From positions 337,231-375,865 of the forward strand of contig NMRA01000423.1 of assembly GCA_002633005.1 (NCBI GenBank): a stretch of DNA of 38,635 bases. The letters run 5' to 3'. Below, one piece after another: positions 1,914 through 37,454 of the stretch. The DNA comes from Phoronis australis. Its lineage: Eukaryota; Animalia; Phoronida. The first letter of the stretch is position 1; every line of letters starts with the position of its first letter. Position numbers and translations under genes: made by a program. Below the pieces are notes generated by a model that saw only the letters and a program-made list of their open reading frames with translations, ran no database searches and had not been told where the DNA came from.

Positions 1914-2009
1914 GACAGCGCAGCACTTCACATGGCAGCAGGGAAGGGCAGGACGGAGGTGGTGAGGGTGCTGGTGCAGGGTGGGGCCGACGTAGACGTG
2001 CAAAACAGG
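1914..2009 (+). CDS. Ankyrin-repeat exon A (first visible) of ANK-ZU5 gene: DSAALHMAAGKGRTEVVRVLVQGGADVDVQNR
   Basis: Acceptor tgtttctgcag ends at 1913 and donor gtaata starts at 2010. 96 nt, phase 0/0, GC-rich island, ankyrin consensus LHxAAxxGxxEVVxxLxxxGADV. Confidence 0.9.
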
Positions 2010-2573
2010 GTAATAGAAACTAATTGAGACGACATTAGAATTAAGACAATGTTATCTTTGTTACAAAAGCTGTAGACTATCTGAAGTTTAACTAAATGTT
2101 TTGTGTGTAAATACACTTTTCATATCTCATGATTTCAACAAATATTTTTCAATCTGTATTGTGTACATGCATCTTTAGAAACAGTGAAGTTTGAATTGTG
2201 TCAACAATATATTTGTCGACTGAACGTTGATACTTTTCTATTCTTAATGACAATCGTCCATTCAACATTACAACTTTATATTAAACACGAAGCCAGAAAT
2301 CGGTGAAGAAATACAACATGGCGGGATCGCTGTCAAGTTATGCAGGAACTCTGTAATTTCTTACAATCGACGTCTACAACATGCTCTGTTGTTACAGCAA
2401 TGTTTTAAAATCTGCAACACTTGGTTCTTGAAATCCTTACAAGTATTGTAGCGCCTTAGAGGGGTCAGTAATGTTTCATCTATGTCACCTTACAAGTTCA
2501 CTTTCCCCCTTGTATGTTAATTAGCTCTAAACGTTGATCGTCCATTCACACATCTCCATTATATATTACATAG

Positions 2574-2672
2574 TGGGGCATGACACCGCTGTACTGGGCA
2601 GCAGAGGGTGGTCATACAGACACAGTGGAGGTGATGTTGGCCAACAAGGCCAGTGTAGATGTACCTGATCAG
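2574..2672 (+). CDS. Ankyrin exon B: WGMTPLYWAAEGGHTDTVEVMLANKASVDVPDQ
   Basis: Acceptor tacatag, donor gtaagt, 99 nt = 33 codons, phase 0/0, GxTPL..AAxxGH motif. Confidence 0.93.
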
Positions 2673-3032
2673 GTAAGTAATGACACACAGGTTGTTTAGT
2701 TGAACTAGTTGTTAACAAACACGATGATTAAAACTGTTTACGAACACATTTTGTTGATATTTTTCACAATTTATTGTCCAAAAACAATGACAAGTTCAAT
2801 GTCGTCTGCTTTTCTTGGTGAAGAACCAAAGCTGCGTAGAGTTGTAACATGTTCTGTAACGTTTTAAAATCTGTAACACTTGATTCTTGAAATCGTTACA
2901 AGTATTGTAGCGTCTTAGAGGGGTCAGTAATGTTTCATTTATGTCACCTTACAAGTTCACTTTCCCCCGTGTATGTTAATTAGCTCTAAACGTTGATCGT
3001 CCATCCACACATCTCCATTATATATTACATAG

Positions 3033-3131
3033 GTGGGCTGGACACCTCTGCACACGGCAGCACTGCGTGGTTATACAGACACAGTGAAGGTGATGTTGGC
3101 CAACAAGGCCAGTGTAGATGTACGTGATGTG
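3033..3131 (+). CDS. Ankyrin exon C: VGWTPLHTAALRGYTDTVKVMLANKASVDVRDV (recent duplicate of exon B)
   Basis: Same acceptor and donor as exon B, 99 nt, TPLH motif, 459 bp downstream of B. Confidence 0.93.
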
Positions 3132-3321
3132 GTAAGTAATGACACACAGGTTGTTTAGTTGAACTAGTTGTTAACACAACGATGATGAACACACAAAATG
3201 TGACTTGGCTGAATCATTCAATGATTTAATTAATCGTGATTTATGATTTCATTTTAAACATTGACATTTTTGTTGCATTCCACCGCACGTGACGTGACGT
3301 GCACGCGACTTTAACTAATTA

Positions 3322-4141
3322 CAGTCAAGTGACCTAATTATCGGACGTTTTGGCACATTTTGCATTATATTTCATTGAAAACATTACGGATTGTTGTAAA
3401 TTCTTTGCTGAAATAAAGAATTACCATTATAGAATTGTTGTGATACTATATCTTGTCACCGAAAGCCACATTTATGTTCCGACTGATCTTCAAAAAACAC
3501 AACAACCAAACCTTCGGAGAACCTAAATATCGGAAACCATGTTTCTCCATACGCCACACCGCGGAAAACTGACTAACCACGTAATGGCCGCGGGCACCTT
3601 GTCGCAAAATTTCAGCTCGAGTGTTTTGACATATATGCTGCTAGAACCCAGGTCCATTCGCAACAAAATTATCCATGAAATGAAATCTGATGACGGCGCC
3701 AAGTCGTTTCAATGAATTATTGCAGACGAATAAAGCACGTGCAAACTCACTGCAGTTTTTAGTATCACTTAGGCTTCTTGATATGACACCCGCACGTGCG
3801 CGGTCGGGGTTTGACTTGAGTTTAAAAACAAACGAAAAAATGGAACAGTGACATATTGTCTGTTCAATGAGATGGTTTCATTGTGGAAAAAGATTTTATT
3901 TTCAACTTTTATAACCGATTTATGCGATCGTCCATTTTAGGCCGACTTGGGGGTCTAAATTGCACCCTCTCTCGGTGAAATCAAAACGAGGCAACGCTGT
4001 AAAAACGAGACGGTGCCGGACATTGAATGCATTACAACGGAACAAAAATTGGTGTCATTTAATTCTCAGATTATGCTTCAAGTAAGATTCTATGAAATGT
4101 CCGATATTTAGGTTCCGTCTGATAATTAGGTACCCTATGTG
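3322..4141. mobile_element. Non-autonomous DNA transposon (Tc1/mariner-like MITE)
   Basis: TA-flanked ends with inverted subterminal motif ACCTAATTATCGGAC (left) and GTCTGATAATTAGGT / TCCGATATTTAGGTT (right). The outermost TIR is imperfect. Confidence 0.5.
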
Positions 4142-4500
4142 TATAAACAGTTTTTAGTTCACCTAGACTTGCACACTGACTTGGTTCTTTACTTGCATTT
4201 CCACAGCACTCATTAAATGAATGTCGATCTGTTGTAATGTATGAGATCAAGTTGTTATATTTAAAACACTATTTTTTTCTACATCACATCAGAAAAACAG
4301 CTAAAAAATCCCACGCAAGTTATGTCTGAATTTAAATGTCAGGTTTTAGTCATATCCTGTTGAGTCACTCACTTCATTAGTATTGCAACTGATGTTGAAG
4401 TTTAAACTGGAAAAGTATAAAACTCGACGACTTTTTCACCCACTCACATCACTATGTATGATGCTGATCAACATTATCTATTTTTGTTCACTTACTGTAG

Positions 4501-4602
4501 GGGGGTGACACACCGCTGCACGTGGCATCTGAAGGTGGACATACAGAGGTAGTGAAACTACTGTGCAAGGAAAGCGGATGCGACGTCAATGCCGTCAACA
4601 AG
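4501..4602 (+). CDS. Ankyrin exon D: GGDTPLHVASEGGHTEVVKLLCKESGCDVNAVNK
   Basis: Acceptor cttactgtag, donor gtatca, 102 nt, phase 0/0, canonical ankyrin repeat. Confidence 0.93.
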
Positions 4603-7600
4603 GTATCACAAGAGTGTTGTACTTCTTGATTAGTTATAAATGTGTTTTAAATGGACTATGAGTTCGAGAATCTATTCATTCGTAATAAATATCTCGTCAA
4701 AAATGATCTGTCTCCTACTTACAAAGAATCTCTTCTTCACTCCATGTACCTCCCCAGATCACTCAGTGGATCAAAACAGCTTGTCTAATCGTATTAATTT
4801 GGCAGAAATAAAAAACAGACCGAACGCGCCATCAATGGTCGACAACAGCCACAGGTTCAGATTTCCTCGCTTCATTAATTATAACACATGCAGGTTTTTA
4901 ATCGGTTCACTACTAGGAATCAGATGCGCATTTAGGAAGGAAATCTTGGAAGGTTTTAGTCTTGCCTAGTTTAATATAACGATAATTTAGCAATCAATTT
5001 ATCCATGTGTTTTAACCCCATGGCTTAACTGTACATGTATTTCAACCCCACCACACAACCGTGTTTGTTCCTGCCAAGGGCGGATTTACTATTGTATGAT
5101 GTTGAAATCTAGGGCGTGACTGAGGCAAAGTCCCGGGCAGTCCGTCGAAAGCACAAGTCCTTTTATCACGGTGACAAGCCGAGCACTCTGAATCTAGTAA
5201 ACGAGCTGTAATCCACAATACATGTAAATCCAAAGTCTGTGTATACATGTGTACATGTGCAGGTGCTTTAAATTGTGTATACACTGAAGCTGGTTTGTTT
5301 ACGATTTTTGCGTGAATTTTGTTGTCGGAAACAGTACCGTGTTTTTTACCTGTCGTCTGCTTCACTTGTTTCAAAAATATGGCATCGTACTTCATCTCGT
5401 TGATCTCTCGTCTTTTTGTTATGTAAGCAAGTTTTATTGTTTAGCGATGAATACTGACTGCTTGTTATAAGTGACACGTTTTGTACCCTTATAATATCAA
5501 CACAATTATTTGAGTTTGCCAACTTCAAGCTGAAAGAATTCAAATTTATGTCGGGATATCTTGCAGAAAAATAGATTAATTACGAATGGGTGCCTGCTTC
5601 GCTAGAAAAATTGAAATTGACAAGTAAATCACTTAGATGGTAATTTTTATGTTTCAAAAGTTCAGGTTGATGCCATTATTTGTGTCTCGATGTTTAAACA
5701 AAAGATAACGGTATGTGAGTCTCGATGGTGTACATGTGTCGGTGAAGTTGACTTTACTGGTAAACATGGTAATTTATAAGATTATATATTTATTACCGAA
5801 GTTAAAAAAACGTGCCTTCAGCAGAACAAAAACGGTTATTTTTGTATCAATAAAACGAGAAACAAAATCAACGTTTGGAACCCTTGCTTTCCTAGAATTT
5901 TACACTTTCGCAAGGAAATAACAGATTATTTCGTTTGCTCAGTTGCAGTTGATTCAGCGAATTTAGTTGACCAAAGTGAATACGTTTTTGAATCATTTTT
6001 ATCATTTTGTTTTTTTTTCGGACATAGGCAGATGCATTTGTGTAAATGTTGTTTCATATCTTGAGCTTAACATCATTTTGCTTCACTCTTAACCTAAACA
6101 ATGCAAATGCCAAAAGTGAAAAATGTCACGGTAGGGCAGACAGTGTAAAAATACTTATAACTGGGTGCCAAACACACCACGGTGAGTCGTCTAGCGCTCG
6201 TGAGCTATCATTCAAACCAGTACTAAACAACCCACTGTACTTTTTCATCACATGTTCAAGCCATGTGGCCTCAGAATATTATAGATTATTGAGTAGAGAT
6301 AGTAAAAGTATTTGCCTATATCCGTGATTCATTAAAAAAATGAAAAGTTGGGGCTGGGAAATGATCCAATACATTCATTTGTTTTTCCGATAGAGTACAG
6401 TACAATTGCCAGTTATACTGATCGTGGCCAACTGTCGTATTTTTTGATTTTTCCAGCAGTGCACACCGTGAACATTTTCAGGTGTACTGACTCATGATAA
6501 ATCCGGCACATTGCAGGCTATAGCCCTCACTTTCAGTTCTGCTAAAGAAAATGGCACTCATATATTTCCAGTCGGCTAAACACAAAAGTTTCGAGCTGTT
6601 GTGGTCATTACAGCACTCGTAATGTTCGTTCGACTAGTTCGATTAAACGGGTCGTTTCTTCTGTTGCTACGATTATCTCACCCGTTTGCTGGCAGACCCA
6701 GATTTACCGCTTTATATCAAGTTTTCAATTTTCCTTATCTAATACTGACAACTATGCAGTAGCTGAACTAAATAACATTGACTACGTGTCATGAATATTG
6801 TTATTTTGTTAGTTTTCACAGCGCAGACTCCTTAGTGTCTCTTGTCTGCAGGCATCCTAAGTGTCGACGTTTTTAACAGTTCATGAAGAAATTCATTTCT
6901 CAGATTAATACGCATGCCAATAGTGCCTGTACTTTCCTCACGCGTTCAAATTCATTTTATTGAAACAAAACATTGAAATTCGGAAATATAAAAGTATAGC
7001 CTATATAATAGACGTAATTGACATTTGACATGGACTTTGACGTTCATTTATTATTCCTCCCATATTTACTCAATAACGGATTTTTACGGTACCTAACTTA
7101 GTTTGCACGTTGATGGCCACGCGTGTCCTTTTCAGTAAACCGTCATATAACGCTTCAATAAAGCATGATGCAGTTTCTGGATTCCAAGTTGGACATCCTT
7201 TATCAATCATTGTGGCGCACGGAAGAGAAATGACACGTCTTTCTTTTCTCCGGGACTGCAAAGTCCGAATTCTTCCAGTCAATGCATACAGTATGGACGG
7301 TTTAAGAAGTTAATTCCACACGCCGTGTATGTCCTACACGCTGTACGCAAAATGGTTGTGAGTCCTTACGTATCGGATATTTATTTGGTTGGAAACTCTA
7401 AATATTGGCATCTGAAAAAATCAACTTTCACGCAAACTACTCTCAGAAGGCAGCCAATGTTGTCCATAAAGTGAACGTTTGCAAATCTACATTTTGTGGA
7501 ATAATTGAATTAGACAGCCGACAAGAATTAAACGAAACAATTTCGGGTGCGAAAATGGACTTTTGCGGTATTACTTGGTAAACTTGTCGTGTAGATTTCT

Positions 7601-7750
7601 AGAAAATATTCTAAAAAATGTGCCAGTCACGAAACAAACAACGCTAATTTTATAAAGATGGTCGATTGCTAGAACGTGTGGAATATTTGAGCTTATTTGA
7701 AAGAAACGCACAGCAGTAGACGCGTGCATTTGAATCGTTTCATTTATTGT

Positions 7751-7853
7751 GATGGTGACACATCAGTTTACGTAGCGTCTGAGAATGGTTAACGAACGAA
7801 CAGTCTTGGAAGTAATTTTTGAAAAACGTGTCAATCTCGCAGTTGTCAAACAG
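7751..7853 (+). pseudogene. Ankyrin pseudo-exon DGDTSVYVASENG*RTVLEVIFEKRVNLAVVKQ
   Basis: 103 nt = 99 + a 4-nt slippage (aacgaacgaac); removing it gives 33 codons aligning to exons D/E. Stop at the His of GH, donor reads AT instead of GT, no AG acceptor. Confidence 0.7.
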
Positions 7854-10365
7854 ATAAAACAACAATGTAAATCACATTGTGTAGCAAGACAGAACTTTAA
7901 AAAATAATGAAAACACTTTCCGACTTAACTTTAATTTTCAAGTGTTGTGTTCTCCATCTCAGCGCTAAATATTCGTATACACGTTGGTGCTGATTGTCCA
8001 GGTTACCACAAATTTAGATCACGACATACATTTCCTGTATAATATATACTGACCTCAATTTCAACATAGCTATAATTCTGTACATAATCTGACTCCATTT
8101 CCGGAACATTTACTTCCATGTTCACTAAAGATATGTTAGTGATTGGTGGCAACATGTTATTGTTGGACCACATCTTATGTTCTCATAAGTATAAACAATA
8201 GTTTCAAATTGCCTTTATTATTCAGTGAAAAGCTACCAAAGTTCGTTGGATTACAAATTTATTTTTGTGAATGAATTATATCCTCATCGTTTCTTTCGGT
8301 TTGTATTTTGCAATTTTTTCTAGCTATCTTCACTGAAATTGTCACCAAAGTATCATTTACACAAACCTGTTCAGTTATTTAATGTTAGTTGTGCCATTCC
8401 GTTCAACTTTGCATACATTAGTCGTGCTTACATGTCGACGGGTGCCACCATTCGGAAATTTAGTGAAGCTTGCTTTAGAGCCGAGGCAATAACTGTTATG
8501 TCAGCAAAAGTTTCATTGATTTTCTTATACATGCACAGTGTACACAATTTCAATATTTGCCTTGTGAGCCAATATGTCTGTTTTATACATTTTTACCTTA
8601 TGTGCATGAAGTTGCGCAAAGGCGTGGATTTAAAAAAATTACAAAAGTATACAAAAATAATTATGCGCACATATACAACGGATTTCTACCTGTGCCTATA
8701 AGCAAGGCATAAGCATGCGTTTACAAGTATATGTGAAACAATTAAGAAGGAAATTTGCCTTAGTTTCTTTATTTCCTAAGCACGGAACGCACTTGTAATG
8801 TTGTGCAGTGGGTTACGATTTCCTTGGTTTACTCGAAAGAATTGAAGTGCATTACAAATGTGACAAGTAAAAATGACACGCATGTACAGCATATGCTTAA
8901 GCGGTCGAATAAATGTCAATGGCAATCTGACTATTCGTGTATTCGATCAGCAGCACAGATATTGATACCTGAAGGCTATTCCTACTGTGACAGAAGAATG
9001 GCCAAATTCAGTTGACATGATATAGACCGAGCATCTGCTTGAGCGAAATCAGTTTGCAAAATTTAAAAAAAGGACCAAATAGTTTACGTAAGCCACTGGT
9101 GTGCCAGCTGCAAATGACTAACGTTCGTTGAAAAATAACGATCACACCCAGTGGGCTCAAGGATTAGGACCATTCATTATGATTATTAAAAATGAATAAG
9201 ATTATATGGCGTATCAATTTTGTTTATTTTCTATACATGTACATTTTTCACCTGCCTTATCGAGAGTCACATCGCTCTTCTAACACCCAAAATAGCTTGA
9301 CAGCAACAAAGTATCCGTTAGATTTGATTAAAATGAATCAAATTGCTTCATTTTGTCCTCGATTAAATATCAGACAATTTCTTTCGCTAATCTGACTGAA
9401 AATAGACCACTTAGCTTTGATTTACATATGCAGTTCAACTAGGAATTGAAATGGTGGTAATCTGGACTGTGTTCAGCTTCACTAAAAACCTTGAAATTGA
9501 CAAATAAATCACCGAGATGGTATTTTTATGTTTCAAAAGTTTAGGTTGATGCCCTGTTTCGGTTGTTTAAACAAAAGATGGCGGTATGTGAGTCTCGATG
9601 GTGTTCATGTGTCGGCGAGGTTGCCTTTACTTGTAAACATGGCATTTATAGGATTATATATTTTTTACCCATGTTCAAAAAACATGACTTTAGTAGAGCC
9701 AAAACGGTTAATTTTAGAGCGATAAAACGAGAAACAAAACCAAGGAGTGGAATCCTCGCTTTCCTACATGTAGGTTTTTACAAACTAGCAAGGGAATAAC
9801 AGACTATTTCGTTTGCTCAGTTGCAGTTGATTCGGCGAATTTAGTTGGTCATGATGAATGCGCTTTTGATCATTTTTATCATTTTGTTTTTCTTTTAGAC
9901 TTAGGCGGATATATTTGAGTACAAGTTGTTAGACCTCTTGATGAGCTTAACAGTATCTTGCCTCACTCTTAACGTAAATAATGCAACTGACAAATCTGAT
10001 TATAAAATGTCACAATCATACAGGTACAGTAGGTTGCGCTGTGTAAAATACAAAGTAGGTGTCGAACACACCTTGGTACGTCGTCAAACACTCGTGAGCT
10101 ATCATTCATAAACTGAGTAAACAACGTGCTTTTGCATCACGTGTTCAGTCCATTCCACTTTAGTGTATTCTAGTTTTTAAGTAGTTGTAGTTATAGTGTA
10201 TGGTATATCGGTAAATAAATAATCCAATGCTTAGCTTTACCAATAGAGTACAATGCACACACAATCCTGCTCTTGACAAACTGTCGTATTTTTATTTTTC
10301 ACTAAGTCAAAGTGTTCCCGTTTTTAACTCACGGCAAAACTAGCATATCACGTAATATATCGCTC

Positions 10366-10598
10366 GAGGAGGCAGTGTGGCCTGGTTGATAAGTGCCTAC
10401 TTTCTTTACTCGAGGTCGTGGGTTCAAGTCCCACCAGGTCACACTGCTTAACCCTTGAGCCAGGTTTCTAGCTCCTCAGCTCGGTTTTAACCATATATTA
10501 ATAAAGCATAAACATATTTCAAGGTGATCAGTGCAATGGGTCCACATGCGAGGCCTGCGCCCGCCTGGTACTACGTGTATTAGACCGCCTGCAATTTT
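10366..10598 (+). mobile_element. tRNA-derived SINE with 13-bp target-site duplication
   Basis: A-box-like TGGCCTGGTTG and B box GGTTCAAGTCC (10421-10431). TSD TAATATATCGCTC at 10353-10365 and 10599-10611. Absent at the paralogous site near 6520. Confidence 0.85.
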
Positions 10599-13500
10599 TA
10601 ATATATCGCTCACTTTGCGTTCTATTAAAGAAAAAAAAAACAGGATGTATATTATTTTGTGACACTCTTAAGTTTGCAGTCGACTAAATTAAAAAATTCT
10701 GGCGCTTGGGCGTTACGACACTCGTAATCTTCGGTCGACAAAAACGCTGTAGGTTAGTTTCTTCTGTTGCTGCAATCATTTCACTCGTTCTTTTAGCAGA
10801 CCCAAATTTTCTGCTTGTTATCAAGTTGTCGCTTTTCTTTCTCTAACACTGACAACTATGACAGGAGGTGATCTAAGTAACATTGACTATTTGTCAGGAA
10901 CTAAGTTATATTTTTATTTTTCACAGTGCAGACTCCTTAGCAACATAACAATCGTAAAATAGGTGGCAGTGTCGCTTGTTTACAGTAATGCAAATTATCG
11001 CTGTTTTCATAATTTAATAAGAAGTTACCGGTAGTTCATTTTTATGATTACGCTTTTCAACAATGTCTTCGCTTTCCTCACCCGTCCAAAGTCATATTAT
11101 TGAAACATTATATTATGTAAATTTAGTGTGGAAGTTTTTAAAAAGTCATACAGGTATAGACTACACAAAAGACGTAACTGACATTCGTCTTTGAACTAAC
11201 AATCCTAGATTTAATCAAGAACTGATTTTCCAGTAACTCAGCAACAAAGAACATTGTGATGGGTGCGCTCTCTTCAGGCGCGAAATACCGACCATAGGTG
11301 TCCTTGGTTGAAACCGCTATATAACTCTTCAATAAATCACAGTCTGGATTCCCAAGTTGCACATTCTGTACCAATCTGAAGTAAAACTGAGGTTTGATGT
11401 TACCGCTCAATTTGGCCCACGGTAAAGGAATTGTACGTCTTTCTTATTCTCCGCCACCAAACGCTTCCGATTTGTGCATACAGTATTGACGTTTTATGAA
11501 GTCAAACACGAAATTGTCCGCAACTGCATTCCACTCATTGTGTATGTTCAATAAAATTCAGCCTACTGTAGGTAAAATGATTGTGACTCGTAATGTGTCG
11601 AGTATATATTTGGTTAGAAACTCCAAAGATTGGTATTTGACACTCCCTCAGTTCGCACGCAAATCTGTTGCAGAACGCCTGCAGAACATCGTGCAATCTT
11701 GTCCATACCGATTTTAAAACAAACACTTTCAAATCTGCAAGCTCTGCCAATTTCACTGAGTCGGCCGTCGTGAACAGGAGTAAAAGGTTTCGTGAGTAAA
11801 AATGGACTTTTCAAGTACAAATTGGTAAACGTTGACGTGTTGCTTTAAATGCAAAATTCTGAAGATATACCAATCACGATGCAAGAACACTCAGTTTAAG
11901 AGTTGGTCGATTGCTAGTGGGATGTTTGAGCGATTTTTTATACAAACGCATAACTGAAGATGTTCTTGGGCCTGAAAAATAAGGAAAGAATAAGAGACGC
12001 TGTGACATGAAATTTAAAGAAGTTGCCTACTTAATGCTAATTGAAATGGATTATCAGGGTGTATTGTACAGTCATGTTGTTCTTAAATTGTGTATTGAGC
12101 TAGTCCTTGAATTAAAATTAAAATTAAAACACGGCTTGATTATTGGATCTTGTAAAATGTGAAAACGCATATCGGTTTCAAGTAGCGGAAGACCACAGCG
12201 GTGAAAAGAAGATGGTCGGCGACATGAACTATTCCGTTGGTGTGGCACTTGTCGTTGAAAAGCTTGACTATTACAAAGTTATTGTCAAACTGGTGCTCGA
12301 TAAAATCAAAATCAGTCGAAATGGTTTAATTTTTAATGTGTCGATAACGTACCTGATTAATGTGTTTGATTTTCCTCTGATATCTATCTCTTTTCAGTTC
12401 TGACTGAAAGTGTCTCTTATCTCAGTTCGGCTAAAGTAAACTCTCCGCTACTCCCGGGGGAAATGATTCAAATGAATAATAACTCGATCGTTTTGGTTTT
12501 GTTTAATTATTTGTCATTTCTTCATACAATTTGAAGTTTTTGCGTCACGCAATTCCACAACCATGTTCAGCTGTAGGAACATGGCTCCTTTCCTTTTTGT
12601 TTTGTTAAGTTTGAAAAACTAATTGGCAAACATTGACGTTTATTCAATTTTGAAAATGTACCAACCCTGAAAAAATCACTTAATTTAAGGCGGATGATCC
12701 ATTGCTAGTGCTTGTGGAATATTTAAGCATTTTTCTTTGAACAAACGATGTACATTACATCCGTGCGGAACTAAACATATTATGCATTTTTAGAACACTA
12801 AAATGCAAATGACCCGTACTATGTAAGGCGATGGCGTTCATTTTGGCTTACCAATCAGGACAAAAACTATGTAATGGTTAAAATTATGAAATAATGCTTC
12901 TCTAAAGAACAATAAAATGGCAAGCAAACTGTGCAGCGAATTCCAAAAATGGCAAACACTGAACACTGTCTGGGTACGGAATAACTGTGCTGTATGGTGT
13001 TGTGCGATGTGTTCACACGTATCTTGTTTTCCTTAACTTAATCATGATTATGTTAATATTAATAATACTATTGTCACGCGCATTCTGTCACACGTCTTTG
13101 TGCTACGTTTGTTATGGCATTATAAGCAAAGTAAGGAACTTTTACAGAGCACTTGAAAATAGTAATGGCCCATCCTATACAGCCGTGGCCTTAAGTTCGA
13201 GTAAATGGCCATACAGCACAATGAGTTCATGGCCTTGTATTTCGGGGATTACGGTACATGTATGTTTACGGAAACAATGACTATCCGTGCAATTTGCAGA
13301 CATTAGACATACTCTGTGAAGTGGACCAATAGGCTGAATAGTAATGGAGTTTTATCTGATGTATTGAATATGTCCTTAATTAGAAACTAAACGCTCTGCT
13401 AAGTAAATACACGTTGATCAGAAAATTATTACTGAAGATGTAAGCAGGATAAATGACAATCGTTTCACTTTGTTTCATGGTAATTAACCGTATTATTATG

Positions 13501-13793: not shown

Positions 13794-13892
13794 AAAGGCA
13801 ACACACCGCTGCACCGTGCTTGTAAATTTGGCCATCTGGATGTCGTGAAACTCCTCGTGGAAGAGGATGGTGACGTCACAGTTGTCAACAAG
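13794..13892 (+). CDS. Ankyrin exon E: KGNTPLHRACKFGHLDVVKLLVEEDGDVTVVNK
   Basis: Acceptor ttatttgatgtag, donor gtaaaa, 99 nt, phase 0/0, canonical ankyrin repeat. Confidence 0.92.
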
Positions 13893-13933
13893 GTAAAATA
13901 TGAATATAAATGGAACTGTGTGGTAAGACACAC

Positions 13934-14263
13934 TTTTACCTGAATAGTGAACATGTCATCTAACTTTGATATAACTTTACCTGAATAGTGAACATTTCAT
14001 CTAACTTTGTTATAACTTTACCTGAATATGAACATCTCATCTAACTTTGCTATAACTTTACCTGAATAATGAACATGTCATCTAACTTTGTTATAACTTT
14101 ACCTGAATAGTGAACATGTCTTCTGATTTTGCTATAACTTTACCTGAATATGAACATGTCATCTAACTTTGCTATAACTTTACCTGAATAGTGAACATGT
14201 CATCTAACTTTGCTATAACTTTTAAATGAATAGTGAGCATGTCATCTCACTTTGCTATAACTT
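13934..14263. repeat. 41-bp minisatellite, about 8 copies (actttacctgaatagtgaacatgtcatctaactttgctata)
   Basis: Direct tandem units starting about 40 nt after the exon E donor. Confidence 0.95.
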
Positions 14264-18880: not shown

Positions 18881-18884
18881 TTAT

Positions 18885-24704: not shown

Positions 24705-24747
24705 GAAAAGCTGTTCGGAAGAGCAGAATCTGCTGCACCGCCAACTT
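24705..24747 (+). CDS. Linker micro-exon G: EKLFGRAESAAPPT plus 1 nt (phase 0 to 1)
   Basis: Acceptor ttttgtttcgtttcag, donor gtaaga. Supplies the phase-1 junction needed to read exon H in frame. Confidence 0.75.
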
Positions 24748-25439
24748 GTAAGAAGGATTGAGTTTTCATAGCGTGAACCTGTCTCCCCTTTGTGACGTTT
24801 ACTTGGAATGCGTTTTGTATACCTATTTTCTCTCGAAAAAGTCAATCTATCTCAAGACTTCGCAAAATTACGTTCCTGAATTAAAAGTGTTTCAGAAGTC
24901 TAGCCGGCAGTTTACGGGCCTGGCCTACAGGAAAAATGTGATCATCACTGAACAAACTATTTTTTTGGTGAAATTGGAATGTTCAATTATGAATACAGTG
25001 AAGCAAAAACACGCATTCGTATCAACACCACTGACTATTATGATGAACACTGTTTAAAGTTCTCTAAGTTACTTTTCTGTGTTCATTTCAAACAATCTTT
25101 TGAGTCCTACATGTATATTTGTTAATCCCTCATTCTAAACTGTTGACATTTAGAAACACTTCTTAATCCAAATTTTTGAGAGCAATGGACAAAGCATGAT
25201 GTGTGAAGTTTTTGTTGCATTTATTGTCATACGTTTGCGTTTATTGTAAACTGTTGTTATCTTTGTCCTCTTGTCTAGATTAAAACTAAGTATAGAAATG
25301 GTAGATAAACTTCCATTTAGAATTTTTAGTGGCTGTCTAACTTACACGTGTCATGTTAAATATTCTGGTATTAGAGATGTAGTACATATACTGAACAATT
25401 TTAAAAGCTGTAAAAAAGTTTGTTGTGACTTGGTACATG

Positions 25440-25858
25440 TAGGACCACCCTTTATCGTACGAACACTATGACGATCCTGTATCGTCAGATCAGTAGGTCC
25501 ACCCTTTGTCGTAAGAACACTAAGACGACCCTGTATTGTGAGATCAGTAGGACCACCCTTTATCGTGAGAACACTATGACGACCCTGTATTGTCAGATCA
25601 GTAGGACCACCCACTATCGCCATATTAGTAGGATCACCCTGTATCGTGAGATCAGTAGGACCACCCACTATCGTCAGATTAGTAGCATCACCCTGTATCG
25701 TCAGATCAGTAGGACCACCCTGTATCGTGAGATCAGTAGGACGACCCTGTATAGTGAGATCAGTAGAAACCACCCTGTATCTTGAGATCAGTGGGACCAG
25801 CCTGTATCTTGAGATCAGTAGAACCACCCTGTATCACTAGAGCAGTAGGTCCACCCTG
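25440..25858. repeat. 27-bp minisatellite, about 15 copies (gtaggaccaccctgtatcgtgagatca)
   Basis: Direct tandem units; they explain the 9-aa repeat ORFs on both strands. Confidence 0.95.
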
Positions 25859-26400
25859 CAAACTTAACGTTCAGTAATTTTTCAGGAACTTTTAAGTTGG
25901 TCCTATGAATCAAACGGCAGGCAGAAGAAATTATGTAGGTTGTTTGACGCCCCTCCCGGAATGTCTAAGTACCCCCGAGTATTCGTGAAAATAGAGTGCA
26001 CAACATTCAACAAATCTCAAAAACAATTCAATTTTAGCTTCCAAGTGAAGCAGTCCGAGCAATGAGTACGAGGTCGGCCGTGTTCAGGGGCACGATCTTT
26101 CCGAAAAAAGGGGAATGATTAGTATTCTTCTGCTTAACCGAATACATGTAGCTACGCCCACACACGCTTTTTTGCTCTCAAATTTATAGCGATAAAAAGG
26201 ACAAAGGGTGCCATCGTCACCTTCTCATTCCCGGATTGTAATTGATAACGGAAATTCAAAATTACTAAGATAATATGTGCCAAAGTCTGCACATTGAAGT
26301 GATCACTAATAAAAGCTACTTAGTAAGAAAACGAGGAACTTAATTGACTTTCGTTGCAATCCTTCCCAAGTACTGATAAATGTCATTTCTATCCCTATAG

Positions 26401-27245
26401 CAACTATTGATGGAGCAGACGGTGGAGTTTTTGGGTACAAAGGGTTTCAACTCAAAGTACCACCAAATGCAATATCCGGGAACATAGAAATTGAGTTTGT
26501 AGATCAGTTGTTGTTAGCACGGGCAGTGCATTACGACACCCAAGGCAGAGCTAACCTCCATTCTCAGAGATTATGCGTGACCTGCACAGATGGAGATGTA
26601 ACATTCTCGGAGCCAGTCGAAGTGCGAGTGACTGTTGCAGCAATGTTCGGAAAAGTGGATGATCAACGACTAAAGAGCGAAGACTTTCGCATATTGCATG
26701 AAAAAGATGGTGAAGTGACTGACGTTACTGAAGATTGCAATGTCAGCATGGTATCGGAGGAAATAATCTTCTACTGTAAAACATGTTTAATGGTTAATAT
26801 TGCTTGGCTGGCAGATTTCACATCTCCTATCGCTACTGGCATGTTTACGACCATCAAACATATACTCGAAGCGTCATACATGTGCAGGATATGCCCGTAC
26901 ATAAAAAAAAGACAAGATGGAGGGTTGATAGTTAAACTATTTTGTCATGGCGTGGACGTGGAGTGTACTGATGACATTGAACACGAGTGTACAAGTTACA
27001 AAATGCGTTTGATAAATAGCGCCACGTTGTTGTTTGGAATTGTTTGCTGGAGCATTGCGGATGACAAAAAGAAACAAATTTCCTCTAAAGGGTTTAAACT
27101 TGAAAGGGATCATTGTGAAAGAGCATGTACAGTTTTTGAGATGATTGAAGCTAGAGTTCGTGCACTTATGGCTCACAAGGTTCGACTGTTTGTGAAAGAA
27201 TTAATCTACAAGGAAACCCTGATGGACAGGCCTGTGAAGGTTCAT
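26401..27245 (+). CDS. Large exon H encoding a ZU5-like domain followed by a UPA-like beta domain (STIDGADGGVFGYKGFQLKVPPNAI...FSEPVEV...IVKLFCH...PVKVH)
   Basis: Acceptor tctatccctatag ends at 26400. Frame is open from 26403 and continuous with ORF 26508-27266; donor gtaagt at 27246. The GG.....G..L.VP.NAI and F.EPV.V motifs match the ZU5 pattern from memory; no HMM was run. Confidence 0.85.
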
Positions 27246-27658
27246 GTAAGTACAGTACCTGTATAACTTGTTGTCTGTGTGTGTTGGACTGCATGTTGCA
27301 TGTGGTGTATTGGAGTATGAATCAGGTGTCCGCGTTTCTGTTACAGTGGCTGTAAGGGAATGAATTGACAATGACGTCAATGAAAAATAACCATTCGTCT
27401 AACGGTACTCTCCGATCCAAACTAAAGGTATTTGATCCGCCGGGACTCGTGCAGTTTGTCAATTCCCCGTTTTAATCCAACAATTCTATGTTGCATAAAA
27501 TACGAGTCGTTCATTGGAACAAATGCAATACAACACACGCTATACTTTCTTTGATGCTCACGATGAAGCGGACCCGCTGACGATCAAGAACCTGCGACGT
27601 TGTAGACCTCCCGTTTGCTATAACATTTTTGTCTAAAATACCTGACATTTCCGCCTGG

Positions 27659-27934
27659 TTATGAATCCGATTTAGTTGTCCATGTTGTGTGCTTATTTTG
27701 TGTGACGAAACAGGAGTATTCCTCTCGCCTGTCTGATGAATACTTGCTAGTATGAATGGGATGTTTTTGAAGATTTGACTCCTCTTTGGCACGCGCAGCG
27801 ATGAATGCTTCACGTTTGAGAGGGTAGTGCGTCTTTGGTATACGATGTACTTTGAGTTACGGCGATGTTATGTAATCGGGTGAATTAAACGAGAAGCTAT
27901 TGAACATGCCCTTCTGTTCAGCAGAAGTCACCAT
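27659..27934 (-). pseudogene. Degenerate THAP-like N-terminus from a DNA transposon relic
   Basis: Minus strand reads MVTSAEQKGMFNS...*LKVHRIPK...KREAFIAA, resembling THAP MVxxCxxxGCxN...FHRFPK...RxxWIxA with the Cys/Trp lost. Confidence 0.35.
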
Positions 27935-28699
27935 GCTGTCGGTGCCGCCGGAAATGAGACGAAGTCCAAAACAGGAATTGTGAGCAGTTTTATCACTCTA
28001 CAAGTAACTTCTGCTTGGCCGAAATCCAATGAAAACTATTCAATCGCTCAGAATAGTAGTTATAGATCTGTCTCACTAAATTTCATCGTAAATTGCTGGT
28101 GAAAATAAATTATGCACGGTGTTAAACTCGTAACTTATGCTGCTGTTGTCCAGGATGGCCAAGCAGATCCAAACAAACGACCCAAATTTCGCCACCAAAA
28201 TTGCACTAAATGTGCACAGCTTAAACCGATTTTGATATTTTTTTCAAATTACATTGAGTGGGATGCATTATCTTTCCGAATATATTCAAGTATTTTTGCA
28301 AATCCAAAAAATATCGGTTGGACAGCCCTAATCTTATTGTTCATTTGGTCCAGCTAGCGATCGACTAGGCTAAAATACAATGAAATGCAACGACAGGTAA
28401 CGAACATCAAGCAATTCAGCACATCCACCTACAAACACTTACCGGTATGTTGCAAAAACTGTAATTCAAAAGAAAAGCAATCTAGCAGTTACTTCTAGCA
28501 CTAATCCTGTCCGACAGTGTCCATCCATGCTATCCGCCGTTTTGAATGTTACGTTGTTAATAATAGCTCAAGTCCCACTAGCTTCTGGAAAGTGACATAT
28601 GTACCGTTTCGAATACTCTCTAAGATTTCACTCATCCTGGTTTACAACCATACTCGGATCACAGGCTGTCGTTCTAGAAGCAGTCATAGAAATATGTTA

Positions 28700-29917
28700 G
28701 CTACATGTTACAGCTATCGAATACGGCGACGCTCCACTCGTGGACTTCGCAAAGTGTTTTCACTTGCGACACAGTCTTGGATCAGTGGGAAACTTGTGCA
28801 AAGATACCCCCAGCCCTTGGCGTATTGCCACAGCCTCCAGCTTTACACAACGGTCAGGCATTCTTCTTCAAATATTTACTCCAGTTAAAATGTAAAAATC
28901 CGTCTACATTTGAAAAAGTACTCCTCCTGGCACACAGCAATGGAGACTGTGTACTCAGTCAGGCTGATTCTGCAATGATGGGGACACATTGTAAAATGTT
29001 TATGGCAACACACGAGACCATGTGCATGTGTCACATTCAAATGGCAAAGGTTGCATAATATACCATTCTAACAAACACTAAGACTCCCATTTGTGCCACA
29101 TAGTCCCAGCCAAGAGAACAAACCTATGCGCAGACTCGGCAGTGATCGGGTCAGGAATTCTTGATGTGTTTCTGATGTGACGTGTTTCCGAAGATAGCCG
29201 AAGTTCAAAATTTTTTGTTCTCAAAATTTTGTGGGGAAGTGGGAACGTGTTTAAACTAATAATAGAAGAATATGGGGTATGGAATAAAAAGAAATGTGGT
29301 TTATAAACAAACTTTAATTACAGTCAACACATGTGTGTACATGTACATATTAACTACAATTAAATAGCTCTGAATCAATCTCTATAAGACAGCATCTTGA
29401 GATTCTTCTGTCTGAGTTCCACCTCCACTGTTCTACGATTTAATGTTGCCGGGAAGGGTTTTGCCCCCCTTTGGCCACAAAAATGAACACTAAAATGACA
29501 AGGAAATAAATTCGGGCCTTAATCATGATACATCTAGCCGTGAGCATGTACTTTGATATATGTGTGTGTTGGGCACAGAAATTATAATATTCCTCATGAG
29601 AAAAGCTTTTAGACCCTGTTCGTAACTGTCTGTACTAATTCTACTAGTGTATGCCATTGTATACCCATGTGATCAAGGTTTCATTGAAGCACTTCAATAG
29701 TTTCTTTGTTGGGTTTACCCCTCTCGACACAGTGGGTTGCCTTAGAAACTAAAAATGATTTTAAATAACCAGCTCACTGGTATAGCAAAACCAGGCTTTC
29801 AGACTCTTAAACCATGTTGGTGAAATGTACGTCAGGCCTAAAATTAGACCAGGTTTAGGAAGACCAGGTTTAAGACTTAAACCTGGTTTTGTCAGACCAC
29901 CTTTATGAAATCGGGTG
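28700..29917 (+). mobile_element. Decayed, internally deleted PIF/Harbinger transposon (partial second copy about 31931-32506)
   Basis: Ordered relic motifs LQLYTT (28835), GDCVLSQA (28942), AMMGTH (28972), TP (29083), EQTY/QTR and GIL/MCF*C (29154). TIR-like end CTTTATGAAATCGGGTG with AGACCAGGTTTA subterminal repeats. Confidence 0.55.
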
Positions 29918-31560
29918 TTGATGTGTGCTACTGAGACGGGTGGTGGTCAGACCTTTCGTTATAATGATTGAATTTGAATCATGCCGTGATATTAAACTCA
30001 TCTGAGGGATAATGTGAGGACACCAAAATACCCGAAATACCTGAAGTCAGTATACCTGGAATTGCTTCAACGAAATATCGTGATTCAGAAACTTTGGTTG
30101 TGCTGTACATATACTTAACTTACTGCCCCATCTCAGGTTGGTTAGCACAGATTACTTTGAGACAGTTAAAATCTAGTGTACATAAATTAATTTGAGATTT
30201 TTCTACATGTATTTGACTCTTCCCGAGTGAGAATTTGACACATTTGACACCCTCTAAAAACGTGGAGTATTGTACGCCATAAAAACAAAAGTGTAAAACG
30301 TGGCGTGTCAAAGGTGTAAAATGTAGCGTGTCAAACGTGTCAAGAACGCGTCGAAAACGTGTAATTTTCGTTCCAATACTCCACGTATGACACGCTTACC
30401 GTGTCAAACGTGGCGATAAGTGTGTAAAACGTGGCGATAGCCTGTCCAACGTGGCGTGCCAAAACGTGGCAAAAATGTGGCGCTTTTGACACACTACCGT
30501 GTCGAACGTGGCGCTTGTGATACGCTAGCGTGTCGAATGTGGCGCTTTTGCCGTGCTAGCCTGTAATCTGTGTCATTGCCGTGGTACCGACCCCACATTT
30601 AGCCTGAGGCCTGTACAAGCCATAATGTTCTTGTATAGAGCAGCTCGCCATCCACCATGGGAATCCATACTGAAAGCAAATGTAGAAAGAGATTTCTTCT
30701 TTAAGTCACTGTTTATTGTAACATATAAATAATCCAAAATGTGATAATGATATAGAGTCTTTAAAAGGATAATGTATTTATCCAATTCTTACCACATACA
30801 GTTGTCACTAAATTTCATTACATCTAGAATAACAGTAACACAGAAGTAAGAAAGTGGTTCAACATACAAGTTCGAAGTGCTTAAAAGGGAACTGTATTTT
30901 ATTCTAAATAAATTCTGGATATTCTTTCATGTATTGTTGATTAATTTCGCAAATAATTCAACAAAAAATTAAACTTATATTCTCTAACGAAGCTTAAAAA
31001 ACTACCGGCTTGGAGCGCTGCTTAGTCTCGTAACGTATTTGGCGGGGGCAAAGTCACTGTCCTGTGTTAGCGTGCAATCAAGTAGCGTTTTTCATATTGT
31101 CGGAATAAGAAATTTTAGTGCGAAATGTAGGGTCACCAGGGATACTTGTTTGAGCCGAGAAAACACAAAGTGATACCAAGTCATCGCCATCGTCAGAGGA
31201 AAATTTGCCGGTGCAACCAGTCCGCATCAACAATTTACACTGGTGTGACTGTGCCGTGGGCAATATAGACTCCAGCTAGCCAGTCAGCTCTGTAAACTTG
31301 AAGGGTTGGCAAGTTACCGATTATAACAGTACATGTATTAAAGTGTAAATTGCAAGGTCTCAACCAATCTGAACAACAAAATGCTCTAAATTCGTGTTTA
31401 TAATTATTATTGCTATATTCTCAACATTAACTGAATTGTACGTCGCTATAAAAAGTTCTTTACATATTTGTTGCCGTGGCGTTGTAACGCCATTGTTGTA
31501 ACGGAAAATAGAAACGGCGCCATTTTCCTTCGTTACACATCTGTGACGTGGTGTTGGGGA

Positions 31561-31734: not shown

Positions 31735-31769
31735 TTAAGTATTCTATTTTCACTCTTGATGACGTCAGT

Positions 31770-31848: not shown

Positions 31849-33958
31849 AATCGTTATCTCACTAGTGAGATAACTTTATGGGTTATTACACGGTTGTATC
31901 TGCCATTTGACGCTAAAAAACGTGGTATAAATGTACATATTAACTACAATTAAATAGCTCTGAATCAATCTCTATAAGACAGCATCTTGAGATTCTTCTG
32001 TCTGAGTTCCACCTCCACTGTTCTACGATTTAATGTTGCCGGGAAGGGTTTTGCCCCTCTTTGGCCACAAAAATAAACACTAAAATGACAAGGAAATAAA
32101 TTCGGGCCTTTAAATCATGATACATCTAGCCGTGAGCATGTACTTTGATATACGTGTGTGTTGGGCACAGAAATTATAATATTCCTCATGACAAAAGCTT
32201 TTAGACCCTGTTCGTAACTGTCAGTACTGATTCTACTAGTGTATGCCATTGTATACCCATGTGATCAAGGTTTCATTGAAGCACTTCAATAGTTTCTTTG
32301 TTGGGTTTACCCATCTCGACACAGTGGGTTGCCTTAGAAACTTTAAAAATGATTTTAGATAACCAGCTCACTGGTATAGCAAAACCAGGCTTTCAGACTC
32401 TTAAACCATGTTGGTGAAATGTAGGTCAGGTCTAGACCAGGTTTAGGAAGACCAGGTTTCAGACTTAAACCTGCTTTTGTCAAACCACCTTTATGAAATA
32501 GGGTTTTGATATGTGCTACTGAGATGGGTGGTGGTCAGACCTTTCGCTATAATGATTGAATTTGAATCATGCCGTGATATGAAACTCATCTGAGAGATAA
32601 TGTGAGGACACGAAAATACCCGAAATACCTGAAATCCGTATACCTGGAATTGCTTCAACGAAATATCGTGATTCAGAAACTTTGTTTGTGCTGTACATAT
32701 ACTTAACTTACTGCCCCATCTCAGGTTGGTTAGCACAGATTACTTTGAGACATTTAAAATCTAGTGTACATAAATTAATTTGAGATTTTCCTACATGTAT
32801 CTGGCTCTTCCCGGGTGAGAATTTGACACATTTGACACCCTCTAAAAACGTGGAGTATTGTACGCCATAAAAACGTGTCAAAAGTGTAAAACGTGGCGTG
32901 TCAAAGGTGTAAAATGTAGCGTGTCAAACGTGTCAAGAACGCGTCGGAAACGTGTAATTTTCGTTTCAATACTCCACGTATGACACGCTTACCGTGTCAA
33001 ACGTGGCGATAAGTGTGTAAAACGTGGCGTTAGCCTGTCCAACGTGGCGTGCCAAAACGTGGCAAAAATGTGGCGCTTTTGACACACTAGCGTGTCGAAC
33101 GTGGCGCTTGTGATACGCTAGCGTGTCGAATGTGGCGCTTTTGCCGTGCTAGCCTGTAATCTGTGTCATTGCCGTGGTACCGACCCCACATTTAGCCTGA
33201 GGCCTGTACAAGCCATAATGTTCTTGTATAAAGCAGCTCACCATCCACCATGGGAATCCATACTGAAAGCAAATGTAGAAAGAGATTTCTTCTTTAAGTC
33301 ACTGTTTATTGTAACATATAAATAATCCAAAATGTGATAATGATATAGAGTCTTTAAAAGGATAATGTAACTATCCAATTCTTACCACGTACAATTGTCA
33401 CTAAATTTCATTACATCTAGAATAACAGTAACACAGAAGTAAGAAAATGGTTCAACATACAAGTTCGAAGTGCTTAAAAGGGAACTGTATTTTATTCTAA
33501 ATAAATTCTGGATAGTCTTTCATGTATTGTTGATTAATTTCGCAAATAATTCAACAAAAAATTAAACTTTTATTATCTAACGAAGCTTAAAAAACTACCG
33601 GCTTGGAGCGCTGCTTAGTCTCGTAACGTATTTGGCGGGGGCAAAGTCACTGTCCTGTGTTAGCGTGCAATCAAGTAGCGTTTTTCATATTGTCGGAATA
33701 AGAAATTTTAGTGCGAAATGTAGGGTCACCAGGAATACTTGTTTGAGCCGAGAAAACACAAAGTGATACCAAGTCATCGCCATCGTCAGAGGAACATTTG
33801 CCGGTGCAACCAGTCCGCATCAACAATTTACACTGGTGTGACTGTGCCGTGGGCAATATAGACTCCAGCTAGCCAGTCAGCTCTGTAAACTTGAAGTTTT
33901 GGCAAGTTACCGATTATAACAGTATTAAGACTATCGTATCACTGTGTGTTGAGCTCCG

Positions 33959-34734
33959 TTAACCCCGAAATTTCAGACAGCCATTGACTACCCGGGTATA
34001 ATAGACTTTAGCCTTGGTACAAAGCTGTATATAAATATACAGCTTTGCACCGATGTGGGTAAAAAGTGGCAAGATAAAATCTGACACAAAATTGGTGTCA
34101 TTAAAAACTACAGTCTTCCTTGAGTAAACTAAATTATTTAACGGTGTTGGCAAAAATGGCGTTCTACCGTTATTCTGCTGCTAAATTTGTGGAGCGATCT
34201 TTAGCGACGGCTTTTGGCGCCGTGAAATATTGCGTCACCTATTGGCCAGTTTCTTTTTTCGAAAATTCTTTAATCAACTGTTGTTCTTTCACGAGCTTGC
34301 ATACACGTCAAAACAAATTATCAGAACTGGTTTCACTTCATTATAAGTTTTTAGAATTTTGATACCGAAAAATCGAATTTCAGAAGAAATTTTGCTGCGG
34401 CCAAGCTATCATCATCACCCGAGAGATGTCGCAAAAATTTAGGAAATGGCGCGTGCGCGTGACACGAGCGTACTGTTTTCAAAACGACGAAATATTTTCA
34501 TTGTTAGAAAAGGCGGAGAGTTACACAAGAAAATGACGTTTATTGCATTGTTTTTCACTTAAACGGCTGTAACGGCAAAGGTGAGTGTCGGTTGACTCCC
34601 AGATTTTGCATGCACACCGTCCGGTTTTTAGCTTTACATGTTGATACAAGTTTCACGGCGCGGTGACGAGCAGAACTACCCAGGCTGTGTGCAATTTCGG
34701 GGTCTACGGAAGAAATACACACAGTGGGACCTAG
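33959..34734. mobile_element. Possible piggyBac-like element end, truncated by the gap
   Basis: Begins TTAA-CCC followed by CpG-rich non-coding sequence; the other end is not visible. Confidence 0.3.
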
Positions 34735-35627
34735 NNNNNNNNNNNNNNNNNNNNNNNNNNNNNNNNNNNNNNNNNNNNNNNNNNNNNNNNNNNNNNNNNN
34801 NNNNNNNNNNNNNNNNNNNNNNNNNNNNNNNNNNNNNNNNNNNNNNNNNNNNNNNNNNNNNNNNNNNNNNNNNNNNNNNNNNNNNNNNNNNNNNNNNNNN
34901 NNNNNNNNNNNNNNNNNNNNNNNNNNNNNNNNNNNNNNNNNNNNNNNNNNNNNNNNNNNNNNNNNNNNNNNNNNNNNNNNNNNNNNNNNNNNNNNNNNNN
35001 NNNNNNNNNNNNNNNNNNNNNNNNNNNNNNNNNNNNNNNNNNNNNNNNNNNNNNNNNNNNNNNNNNNNNNNNNNNNNNNNNNNNNNNNNNNNNNNNNNNN
35101 NNNNNNNNNNNNNNNNNNNNNNNNNNNNNNNNNNNNNNNNNNNNNNNNNNNNNNNNNNNNNNNNNNNNNNNNNNNNNNNNNNNNNNNNNNNNNNNNNNNN
35201 NNNNNNNNNNNNNNNNNNNNNNNNNNNNNNNNNNNNNNNNNNNNNNNNNNNNNNNNNNNNNNNNNNNNNNNNNNNNNNNNNNNNNNNNNNNNNNNNNNNN
35301 NNNNNNNNNNNNNNNNNNNNNNNNNNNNNNNNNNNNNNNNNNNNNNNNNNNNNNNNNNNNNNNNNNNNNNNNNNNNNNNNNNNNNNNNNNNNNNNNNNNN
35401 NNNNNNNNNNNNNNNNNNNNNNNNNNNNNNNNNNNNNNNNNNNNNNNNNNNNNNNNNNNNNNNNNNNNNNNNNNNNNNNNNNNNNNNNNNNNNNNNNNNN
35501 NNNNNNNNNNNNNNNNNNNNNNNNNNNNNNNNNNNNNNNNNNNNNNNNNNNNNNNNNNNNNNNNNNNNNNNNNNNNNNNNNNNNNNNNNNNNNNNNNNNN
35601 NNNNNNNNNNNNNNNNNNNNNNNNNNA
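34735..35627. other. Assembly gap (N run)
   Basis: Run of N. Confidence 1.
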
Positions 35628-37399
35628 TTTAGCTTTTGAGTCATGCCCCTTGCTTGAAGGCAGTTTTTGAAGTAAAGAACAGACGCATTTTGTAACATTT
35701 TTGAATTACCAAGAGTGATTCAACATTTGTCATAACATCGATTTCATGTTGATTTTTCTGCCGAAACCTCTACACACAATGTGTTATCCTCATTCAAGCT
35801 GGCAAAAATGTGAGTTGATCCTATAACAACAATTATGAATTGATATACTACTTAAGATGAGAGGCGTTCCAACTTCATATACATGTACATTTGTATTACA
35901 ATAGTTTCTACTGACTCTTGTTTTCTGTTACAATCAAACTTACCTGGTAGAAGAAATACCATTTGCAAGAAAAGTTTATCAAGCCACTGTCAACCAGAGT
36001 ACACACATAATAAACTTCTGTTAGAGTTGCACCAAACTCGAAAACCATACTTCATAAGTGCTCTCTTATAACAACTGCACTCTCTGACAGCTAAACCAAC
36101 TCTAACGCAGTATCTGGATATTTGAAAAGCCAGTTATTTTGTTACAAATTCTTTGATGTTATTAAGGGAACATATTTAGTCAATCAAATTGGGTGATTAC
36201 CTCCCAGTGGCCTTTTCAGAGCTACCAAGCCTATGTAAATTGTATCTTTATTGAAGAGTTCTATCATATTTTACACGTTCGACACGCTAGCGTGTCAAAA
36301 TTTTACACGTTTGACACGACCCTGGCGTGTCACAATTTACAAGTTTGATATGCTAGCGTGTAAAATTTACACGTTTGACACGCTAGCGTGTCACATTTTA
36401 CATGTTTGAAACGCTAGCGTGTAAAATTTTACACGCTAGCGTGTCAAACATGTAAAATGTGACACGCTAGCGTGTCAAACGTGTAAAATTTTACATCTCT
36501 CGTATACGGATTGCAGCTATGTTTTAACTACTGCTTGTTAGCGATCTCTTCATGTTTACATATTATTAAAATATAACATTACTGAAACCTATTACGTTGC
36601 AGCACAGACGCCTTCAAGTTCTAAGTTCTCTGTGGTACAATTCTTTGAAATTTGAAAAATACTACTTTGATGTACTTAAAATAAATGAGTTTGAAGCAAT
36701 CTTGGCCTACCTGTTGTTATTATACCGCTAAATACATCCATCCATAGTATTTTTGAGATCATCACCAGGTCTTGTGTTGGTCAGGTTAATGCATTCTAGA
36801 TTTACTTCAAAAGGTTGTCACTGTACAAGTACATTCAGTGTAACTATTTTTATTTGCGCTAACTGTGAAGCGATACCGAGTCTACTTTACGTTGAAACAA
36901 CACGTGTGAAAAGGTCACATAGATCATGACAAATTAAACTAATACAGATGTCGATTAAAACCTGTTATATAATAAGTTGAGCTGTAGAGGTGGGTGACAA
37001 TCTGCGACAATCAGCCGGACAAGGAGCACTATGGGATGTACAATGCAGCAATGCAAGTATACACAATTGTTAAACTAGGAAGATAAGTAACAATATGCAG
37101 AAGCAAATCTAGGACATCCACATGGGAAATTAAGTGTAAATACGAAGTAAGGAAAATTGATTTGAGGGTTGGAGGGGAAGAGAAACTGACTGAAAACTGG
37201 AGAGAGTTATGGACCATGAACCAGTAGTGCGACAAGACAAATAGATCACGTGGTACAATTAAATTAATAATAGTAGAACAAATAGGGTCACTAACCCGAG
37301 AATCCAAACAATACGATAATGAGGATGAAGCAGTATAGCTTACATAAGATAATTTGATACTTGAATAATATGTGTGCGTTGAATTTTGTTTCGTTTCAG

Positions 37400-37454
37400 G
37401 AAGAGTCGGCAAGCCGAACGCTTTCAGCTATTCTACTGAGGCCCACTGCAATAG
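37400..37454 (+). CDS. Second linker micro-exon I: EESASRTLSAILLRPTAI plus 1 nt (phase 0 to 1), paralogous to exon G
   Basis: Acceptor gtgcgttgaattttgtttcgtttcag is identical to that of exon G. Donor gtaagaag, downstream intron homologous to that of G, and phase compatible with the end of exon H. Confidence 0.65.

Follow-up and report, generated by a model that had tools for sequence, protein, structure and literature searches.

The canonical ankyrins ANK1-3 have 24 ankyrin repeats, followed by ZU5-ZU5-UPA and a death domain (DD). The variable intracellular repeat sensors that we know of (NLR, ROCO) switch via a nucleoside triphosphatase (NTPase), and the ZU5 sensors that we know of cleave themselves. 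A 38,635 nt stretch of the Phoronis australis genome (contig NMRA01000423.1, positions 337,231 to 375,865), the whole of which is called the window here, carries part of a gene in nine exons, A to I, in which single-exon ankyrin repeats are spliced directly to an exon with a predicted ZU5 fold. The gene probably encodes a variable recognition protein, in which a diversified ankyrin stack sits on a ZU5-UPA stalk that is predicted to be non-cleaving.

Several described systems share some of these features; sources are cited here for the parts of their text that were available. The brown-algal LRR-ROCO and NB-ARC-TPR proteins are candidate immune receptors, with function inferred, in which each repeat has its own exon, exons are shuffled, the repeats are under diversifying selection and transcripts combine them in varied ways, all of which have likenesses here (PMC11378527). 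The Phoronis gene differs in being from an animal, in having ankyrin rather than leucine-rich (LRR) or TPR repeats and ZU5-UPA rather than an NTPase, and in that its varied joints may come from alleles or paralogues instead of alternative splicing. Fungal NLRs with conserved internal repeats, such as Podospora HNWD, likewise have near-identical repeats with few hypervariable contact positions, which are gained, lost and shuffled (PMC13449251), whereas in the present case no NACHT or NB-ARC is seen, the repeats are separate exons and near-identity is limited to exons B and C.

The likeness to ANK1-3 is in the 99 nt single-repeat exons, which are in the same register (PMC4449188), and in the ZU5 fold; the differences are the five repeats in the window, the one ZU5 at 14-16% identity, the lack of any sequence-level match and the rapid divergence. 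As in PIDD1, NLRP1, CARD8 and UNC5, a repeat or sensor region is followed by ZU5(-UPA) (PMC3210808), but unlike PIDD1, NLRP1 and CARD8 it lacks HF/S or SF/S at the aligned site, and the window contains no death-fold domain. Engineered designed ankyrin repeat proteins (DARPins) also have a constant framework and the same variable surface positions (PMC9611651), and differ from this protein, which is natural, exon-encoded and fused to ZU5. ZU5 and ankyrin domains feature in the invertebrate immune expansions of PMC8195603 and PMC8260672, where the architecture of exons A-I is not mentioned in the text available. A literature search of limited coverage (few subscription journals and no supplements) turned up no account of the present architecture.

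An expressed gene fragment

Exons A-I splice to 1522 nt, or 507 codons, with no stops and with AG/GT ends throughout, reproducing the original prediction, which was made from the sequence alone. The ankyrin exons A-F are all phase 0/0, as had been claimed, and are followed by G (0/1), H (1/0) and I (0/1). The start codon and the stop codon are both outside the modelled exons, the gene exceeding the window 5' and 3'. Six ankyrin repeats had been proposed, of which five stand: exons A-E (32.9-45.2 bits) pass the PF00023 cut-off of 21.1, and exon F has no Pfam match, so that there are five repeats and a cap-like half repeat rather than six full repeats. There are six calls of AG..GT-bounded exons with an ankyrin motif on the + strand (five distinct exons), none on the - strand and none in 30 mononucleotide shuffles. 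A splice-consensus scan, the cut-offs of which are too strict for exons B-F, gave no candidates for exons in 30-1900 and nothing but weak ones in the H-I interval. Within the spliced 507 codons there is no STAND NTPase or ROC-COR domain, the repeats being spliced directly to ZU5; such a domain could be encoded upstream of exon A.

The one-repeat-per-exon, phase 0 layout, which is present as predicted, does not survive as a distinctive trait, since it is standard in ankyrins; the exon table of mouse Ank3 has 16 single-repeat 99 nt exons in the same register (PMC4449188). The layout is therefore ordinary, and the informative part is the turnover of the repeats.

Four RNA runs of the same species (X1-X4, of which X1 and X2 are stranded) were sampled at ~18-19% of each raw run, with reads mapped to 23330-29300 and 1700-4750 at likeness cut-offs of 90 and 85 (85 for 1700-4750). 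Within 23330-29300, the signal of the stranded runs X1 and X2 is on the + strand and falls on exons F, G and H, with a depth of 27-49 over exon H. The F>G junction is seen in 17+42 reads and the G>H junction in 25+39. In X1, 12+14 reads (and one X4 contig) have unaligned ends in front of F that match the last letters of E, and 23 X1 reads have unaligned ends past H that match the start of I (27/30 letters). The RNA reads thus run E-F-G-H-I, giving the ankyrin-to-H transcript link on which the original prediction had been made to depend. Exon A is joined to a B/C-type exon in one X4 contig and has mixed loose read ends on its 5' side. Joints A>B and D>E are absent among the best 15 of 57 joints at 1700-4750, and no single molecule running from A to I was seen. 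Exons A-I are a genuine expressed gene fragment and are modelled correctly.

Read-through at the H donor, which would meet a stop after six codons, is ruled out because the reads splice at the donor. In X2, 3 reads run from the end of one F-type exon into the start of another (23387-23470), which suggests a duplicated F exon in another allele or in a paralogue. In X3, exons B-D and their introns are well covered and F-H hardly at all; this pattern may come from expression of further genes of the family whose C-termini differ, or of a highly divergent allele.

Duplication and change of the ankyrin exons

Exons B and C are a tandem duplicate with 459 nt spacing, in which the exons differ at 16/99 nt and the flanking introns at 8/220 (Fisher p 2.9e-4). 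All but one of the 16 exon changes are non-synonymous, and pN is 0.199 against 0.037 at synonymous and intron sites (p 2.5e-5). Changes affect 10 of the 33 residues, which are listed with exon C in Table 1. Among them are all six DARPin-type positions (hypergeometric 1.9e-4), 10 of the 16 nucleotide changes being within the 6 contact codons out of 33, while nt 41-91 holds one. These six, in exon register, are 1, 3, 11, 12, 31 and 33, reportedly the positions of the DARPin library of Binz et al. 2003. Solved DARPins, in alignments of PDB entries, vary in register at 3, 11, 12, 31 and 33. That such positions number six is confirmed in PMC9611651; no text enumerating them was found in the literature search, and PMC8683736, PMC10542815 and PMC8229355, in the parts available, describe DARPin paratopes with nothing further of relevance. 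Judged from this sequence comparison, amino-acid change is in excess at the ankyrin contact positions, from which we infer selection for change at the predicted ankyrin binding face.

Repeats have also decayed. Two D/E-type ankyrin pseudo-exons were identified with nhmmer (Table 1), for which the best match in the reversed window has E 0.42. The D-E intron also contains an old tandem duplication of ~4 kb (5596-7710 and 9476-11950, 65-77% alike), with more fragments near 14577-14675; the first copy of the duplication ends beside the pseudo-exon at 7751.

In addition to B>C (23 reads), B>D (53) and C>D (110), the best 15 of the 57 joints at 1700-4750 include the like-to-like joints C>C (21) and D>D (106) and the reversed joint C>B (26). 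Where the junction letters are given, residues differ at hairpin positions 33/34, 1 and 3, with Gly-Trp or Glu-Arg in place of Lys-Gly at D>D junctions (read by hand), which indicates distinct exon copies and not circles of one exon. RNA therefore joins B/C- and D-type exons in varying order, in reads that are from other individuals and probably from paralogues. It is likely that this is a polymorphic, multi-copy gene family.

Exons H and I and other features of the window

The first ~140 residues of exon H are predicted to have a ZU5 fold. For a model of residues 1-140 alone, the top match in Foldseek is ankyrin-B ZU5-ZU5-UPA-DD (template modelling (TM) score 0.64, E 1.8e-3), and in VIA the best-placed structure is ankyrin ZU5 (Z 9.2, root mean square deviation 3.6, 130 aligned), followed by GAIN, CARD8, UNC5b and NLRP1. 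A ZU5-like H was the second point on which the original prediction was to be judged, and it holds for these residues. In the Atlas, H lies next to ZU5/UPA clusters (0.95-0.96), and its recognition value is under the Atlas confidence mark; among its nearest clusters, most of those with a known phylum are from echinoderms or sponges. There is a single ZU5 of ~140 aa in this 281 aa exon, and not the tandem ZU5-ZU5 of canonical ankyrins.

Cleavage of NLRP1 requires Ser1213 (PMC3210808). An NLRP1 chain ending at 1212 aligns through residue 129 of the model, and the alignments of several GAIN chains run through 128, which would place the nucleophile slot at Leu129 or Met130. The aligned site in H reads Thr127-Cys128-Leu129-Met130, without the HF/S or SF/S motif, and in this model the ZU5 is probably non-cleaving, with its nucleophile lost; a register shift of one residue would put Cys128 in the slot.

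Protein searches with exon H gave nothing at E 0.001 (longer proteins) or at 0.1 (near lengths), nor did a search with residues 1-140 at E 10. A phmmer comparison of H to ankyrin chains in the PDB had no match at E up to 10, with weak alphaRep matches only, and none of 374 pattern matches for H in metagenomes was confirmed. Two matches in a representative library were low-complexity repeat open reading frames with ~24 residues aligned and were discarded. No paralogue of H is present elsewhere in the window, which includes 1067 N.

Exon I is, from its sequence, a duplicate of linker G, the two having an identical 30 nt acceptor and flanks that are ~70% alike (E 4e-32 and 2e-17). It ends in phase 1, matching the requirement of the H acceptor. 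The distance from G to H is 1653 nt, and an equal distance past I falls beyond the end of the window. Since I is a paralogue of G, the simplest expectation is that a second ZU5-UPA cassette is probably present 3' of I, outside the window; alternatively, the duplicated linker may be before some other phase 1 exon. In X2, 13 loose ends past H start like I and then diverge, which would mean that other I-like exons probably exist; the X2 sequence past H has no credible match within the window. An 893 N gap at ~34735-35627, between H and I, could conceal an exon.

Table 1. Exons and pseudo-exons in the window
Feature	Position	Strand	Description	Evidence
Exon A	1914-2009	+	Ankyrin repeat of 32 aa (phase 0/0); no exon before it in the window, gene start lies upstream	Pfam, splice ends; depth ~49-65 in X1/X2
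Exon B	2574-2672	+	Ankyrin repeat; recent tandem copy of C	Pfam, self-comparison of window, B/C comparison
Exon C	3033-3131	+	Ankyrin repeat; unlike B in residues 1, 3, 7, 8, 11, 12, 14, 19, 31, 33	
Exon D	4501-4602	+	Ankyrin repeat, 34 aa	Pfam, splice ends, reads
Exon E	13794-13892	+	Ankyrin repeat; splices to F; 2 sequence variants among reads	
Exon F	23387-23470	+	Cap-like half repeat, phase 0/0; no Pfam match	
Exon G	24705-24747	+	43-nt linker, phase 0/1	
Exon H	26401-27245	+	ZU5 (~residues 1-140), predicted non-cleaving, then UPA-like half (lead only); phase 1/0	
Exon I	37400-37454	+	55-nt linker, phase 0/1, G paralogue by sequence; frame runs on past window	
Decayed D/E-type ankyrin pseudo-exon	7751-7853	+	Stop, frameshift, both splice sites gone	nhmmer E 7.6e-6
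Second, weaker decayed D/E-type ankyrin pseudo-exon	15216-15305	+	Deletions, GT donor missing	nhmmer E 0.002

The sequences at 15567-19436 and 19438-23321 are a 3.9 kb tandem duplication with 95% identity and a single N between the copies, which is probably two haplotypes set in tandem by the assembler. Tandem haplotypes are likewise suspected for a 2 kb duplication (29335-31331 and 31925-33924, 97%) around a 174 N gap. The C-D intron holds an 822 nt element (3320-4142) with inverted-repeat-like ends and repeat reads on both strands, absent in 24 reads, which appears to be a polymorphic insertion like a miniature inverted-repeat transposable element. Minisatellites in introns (units of ~41, 27 and 31 nt) and an array of palindromic repeats lie at 13935-14265, 25439-25858, 36264-36495 and 38359-38635.

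Explanations of the locus

In the variable recognition protein that is favoured here, single-exon ankyrin repeats would be duplicated, lost and selected for change at the binding face, and the stack would bind variable proteins, probably non-self or altered-self. Binding may relieve ZU5-UPA autoinhibition or cluster the protein, and the output would come from domains 3' of I, outside the window, probably a further ZU5-UPA, a death-fold domain or both. A divergent sensor or adaptor, and not an ankyrin orthologue, had been predicted. That it is not a canonical ankyrin is supported by the one ZU5, the 15% identity and the five repeats in the window, while the word sensor is drawn from the patterns of selection.

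Several observations weigh against this explanation. The Pfam ZU5 score of H is 12.8 bits, below the cut-off of 21. The model of residues 1-140 has a predicted local distance difference test (pLDDT) score of 62, this being the best of five, with 36-42 for the others; a single-sequence model of the whole exon has 38. In VIA, GAIN domains are <1 Z behind ZU5. The second half of H is at 0.85 in the Atlas to a cluster in which 16% of the members carry UPA, so that in the ZU5-UPA label of the original prediction ZU5 is retained and UPA is a lead only. The selection test is of one exon pair, and the six positions were applied to it after the differences were known. An effector domain is absent from the window. 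Reads are mostly 85-95% alike, with 26/1882 at 99%+ (X1, 1700-4750), and C- and D-type exons are 3-5x deeper than F/G/H (X1/X2; cut-offs 85 and 90), which means that alleles and paralogues contribute to the varied joints. Alleles, paralogues and isoforms are not distinguishable in these reads. The exons had been said to be open to skipping, duplication and loss; duplication and loss are seen, whereas skipping within one allele would look the same here as differences between alleles or paralogues.

It is possible, if rather unlikely, that the protein is a lineage-specific adaptor, the repeats of which diversify for different self partners (in scaffolding, gamete or allorecognition roles) and not for pathogen molecules. 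Identical sequence signatures would be expected, scaffold proteins such as ankyrin and UNC5 use ZU5-UPA too, no effector domain is seen, and the ZU5 is likely to be non-cleaving, unlike those of PIDD1, NLRP1 and CARD8. Yet the polymorphism, exon turnover and copy-number differences would resemble conflict-driven sensors (PMC11378527, PMC13449251).

A relaxed birth-and-death family in near-neutral drift, where gene conversion of the B/C introns mimics selection, is improbable. When the best 40 of 331 variants are considered, 27 are in H, and 24 of these 27 are non-synonymous against a null of 21.5 (p 0.16). By count this is about the neutral rate, with little purifying selection, which fits a relaxed gene and tells against the favoured explanation; the lack of stop codons could well be due to chance (P 0.38), and there are pseudo-exons and no sequence relatives detected in the collections searched. 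However, the substitutions in H are milder than the null would give (mean BLOSUM62 0.54 vs -0.18, p 0.022), the B/C changes are concentrated on contact codons, with one in nt 41-91, the frame and splice sites are maintained, and there is spliced expression in X1, X2 and X4.

That the model is a composite, with B and C being alleles in tandem or A-D and E-I coming from different paralogous genes, would fit the two 95-97% tandem duplications beside N gaps, which are typical of unmerged haplotypes, the A>B and D>E joints absent among the best 15 of 57 and the uneven coverage in X3, but is very unlikely, given that no N separates B and C, that 70 reads link two B/C-type exons to each other, that the tandem B/C unit is present in an X4 contig, that a simple look finds no start or stop exon between D and E, and that even as alleles the B/C contact-site excess would imply diversifying selection.

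The variable recognition protein may be part of something larger, although this can be put forward only tentatively: an animal germline 'natural DARPin library', in which single-exon ankyrin modules are duplicated, swapped between copies and reordered, giving a large number of binding surfaces, on tandem non-cleaving ZU5-UPA stalks, with NTPase-free signalling, as an undescribed class of variable intracellular immune or allorecognition receptor.

Genes of this kind would be easily overlooked, as the ZU5 exon is without a detectable relative in the protein collections searched. Exons B and C, with a shared framework and different contact residues, are a matched pair for ligand finding. If the explanation is true, invertebrates would have a further source of recognition diversity, in which a diversifying ankyrin array is coupled straight to a non-cleaving ZU5.

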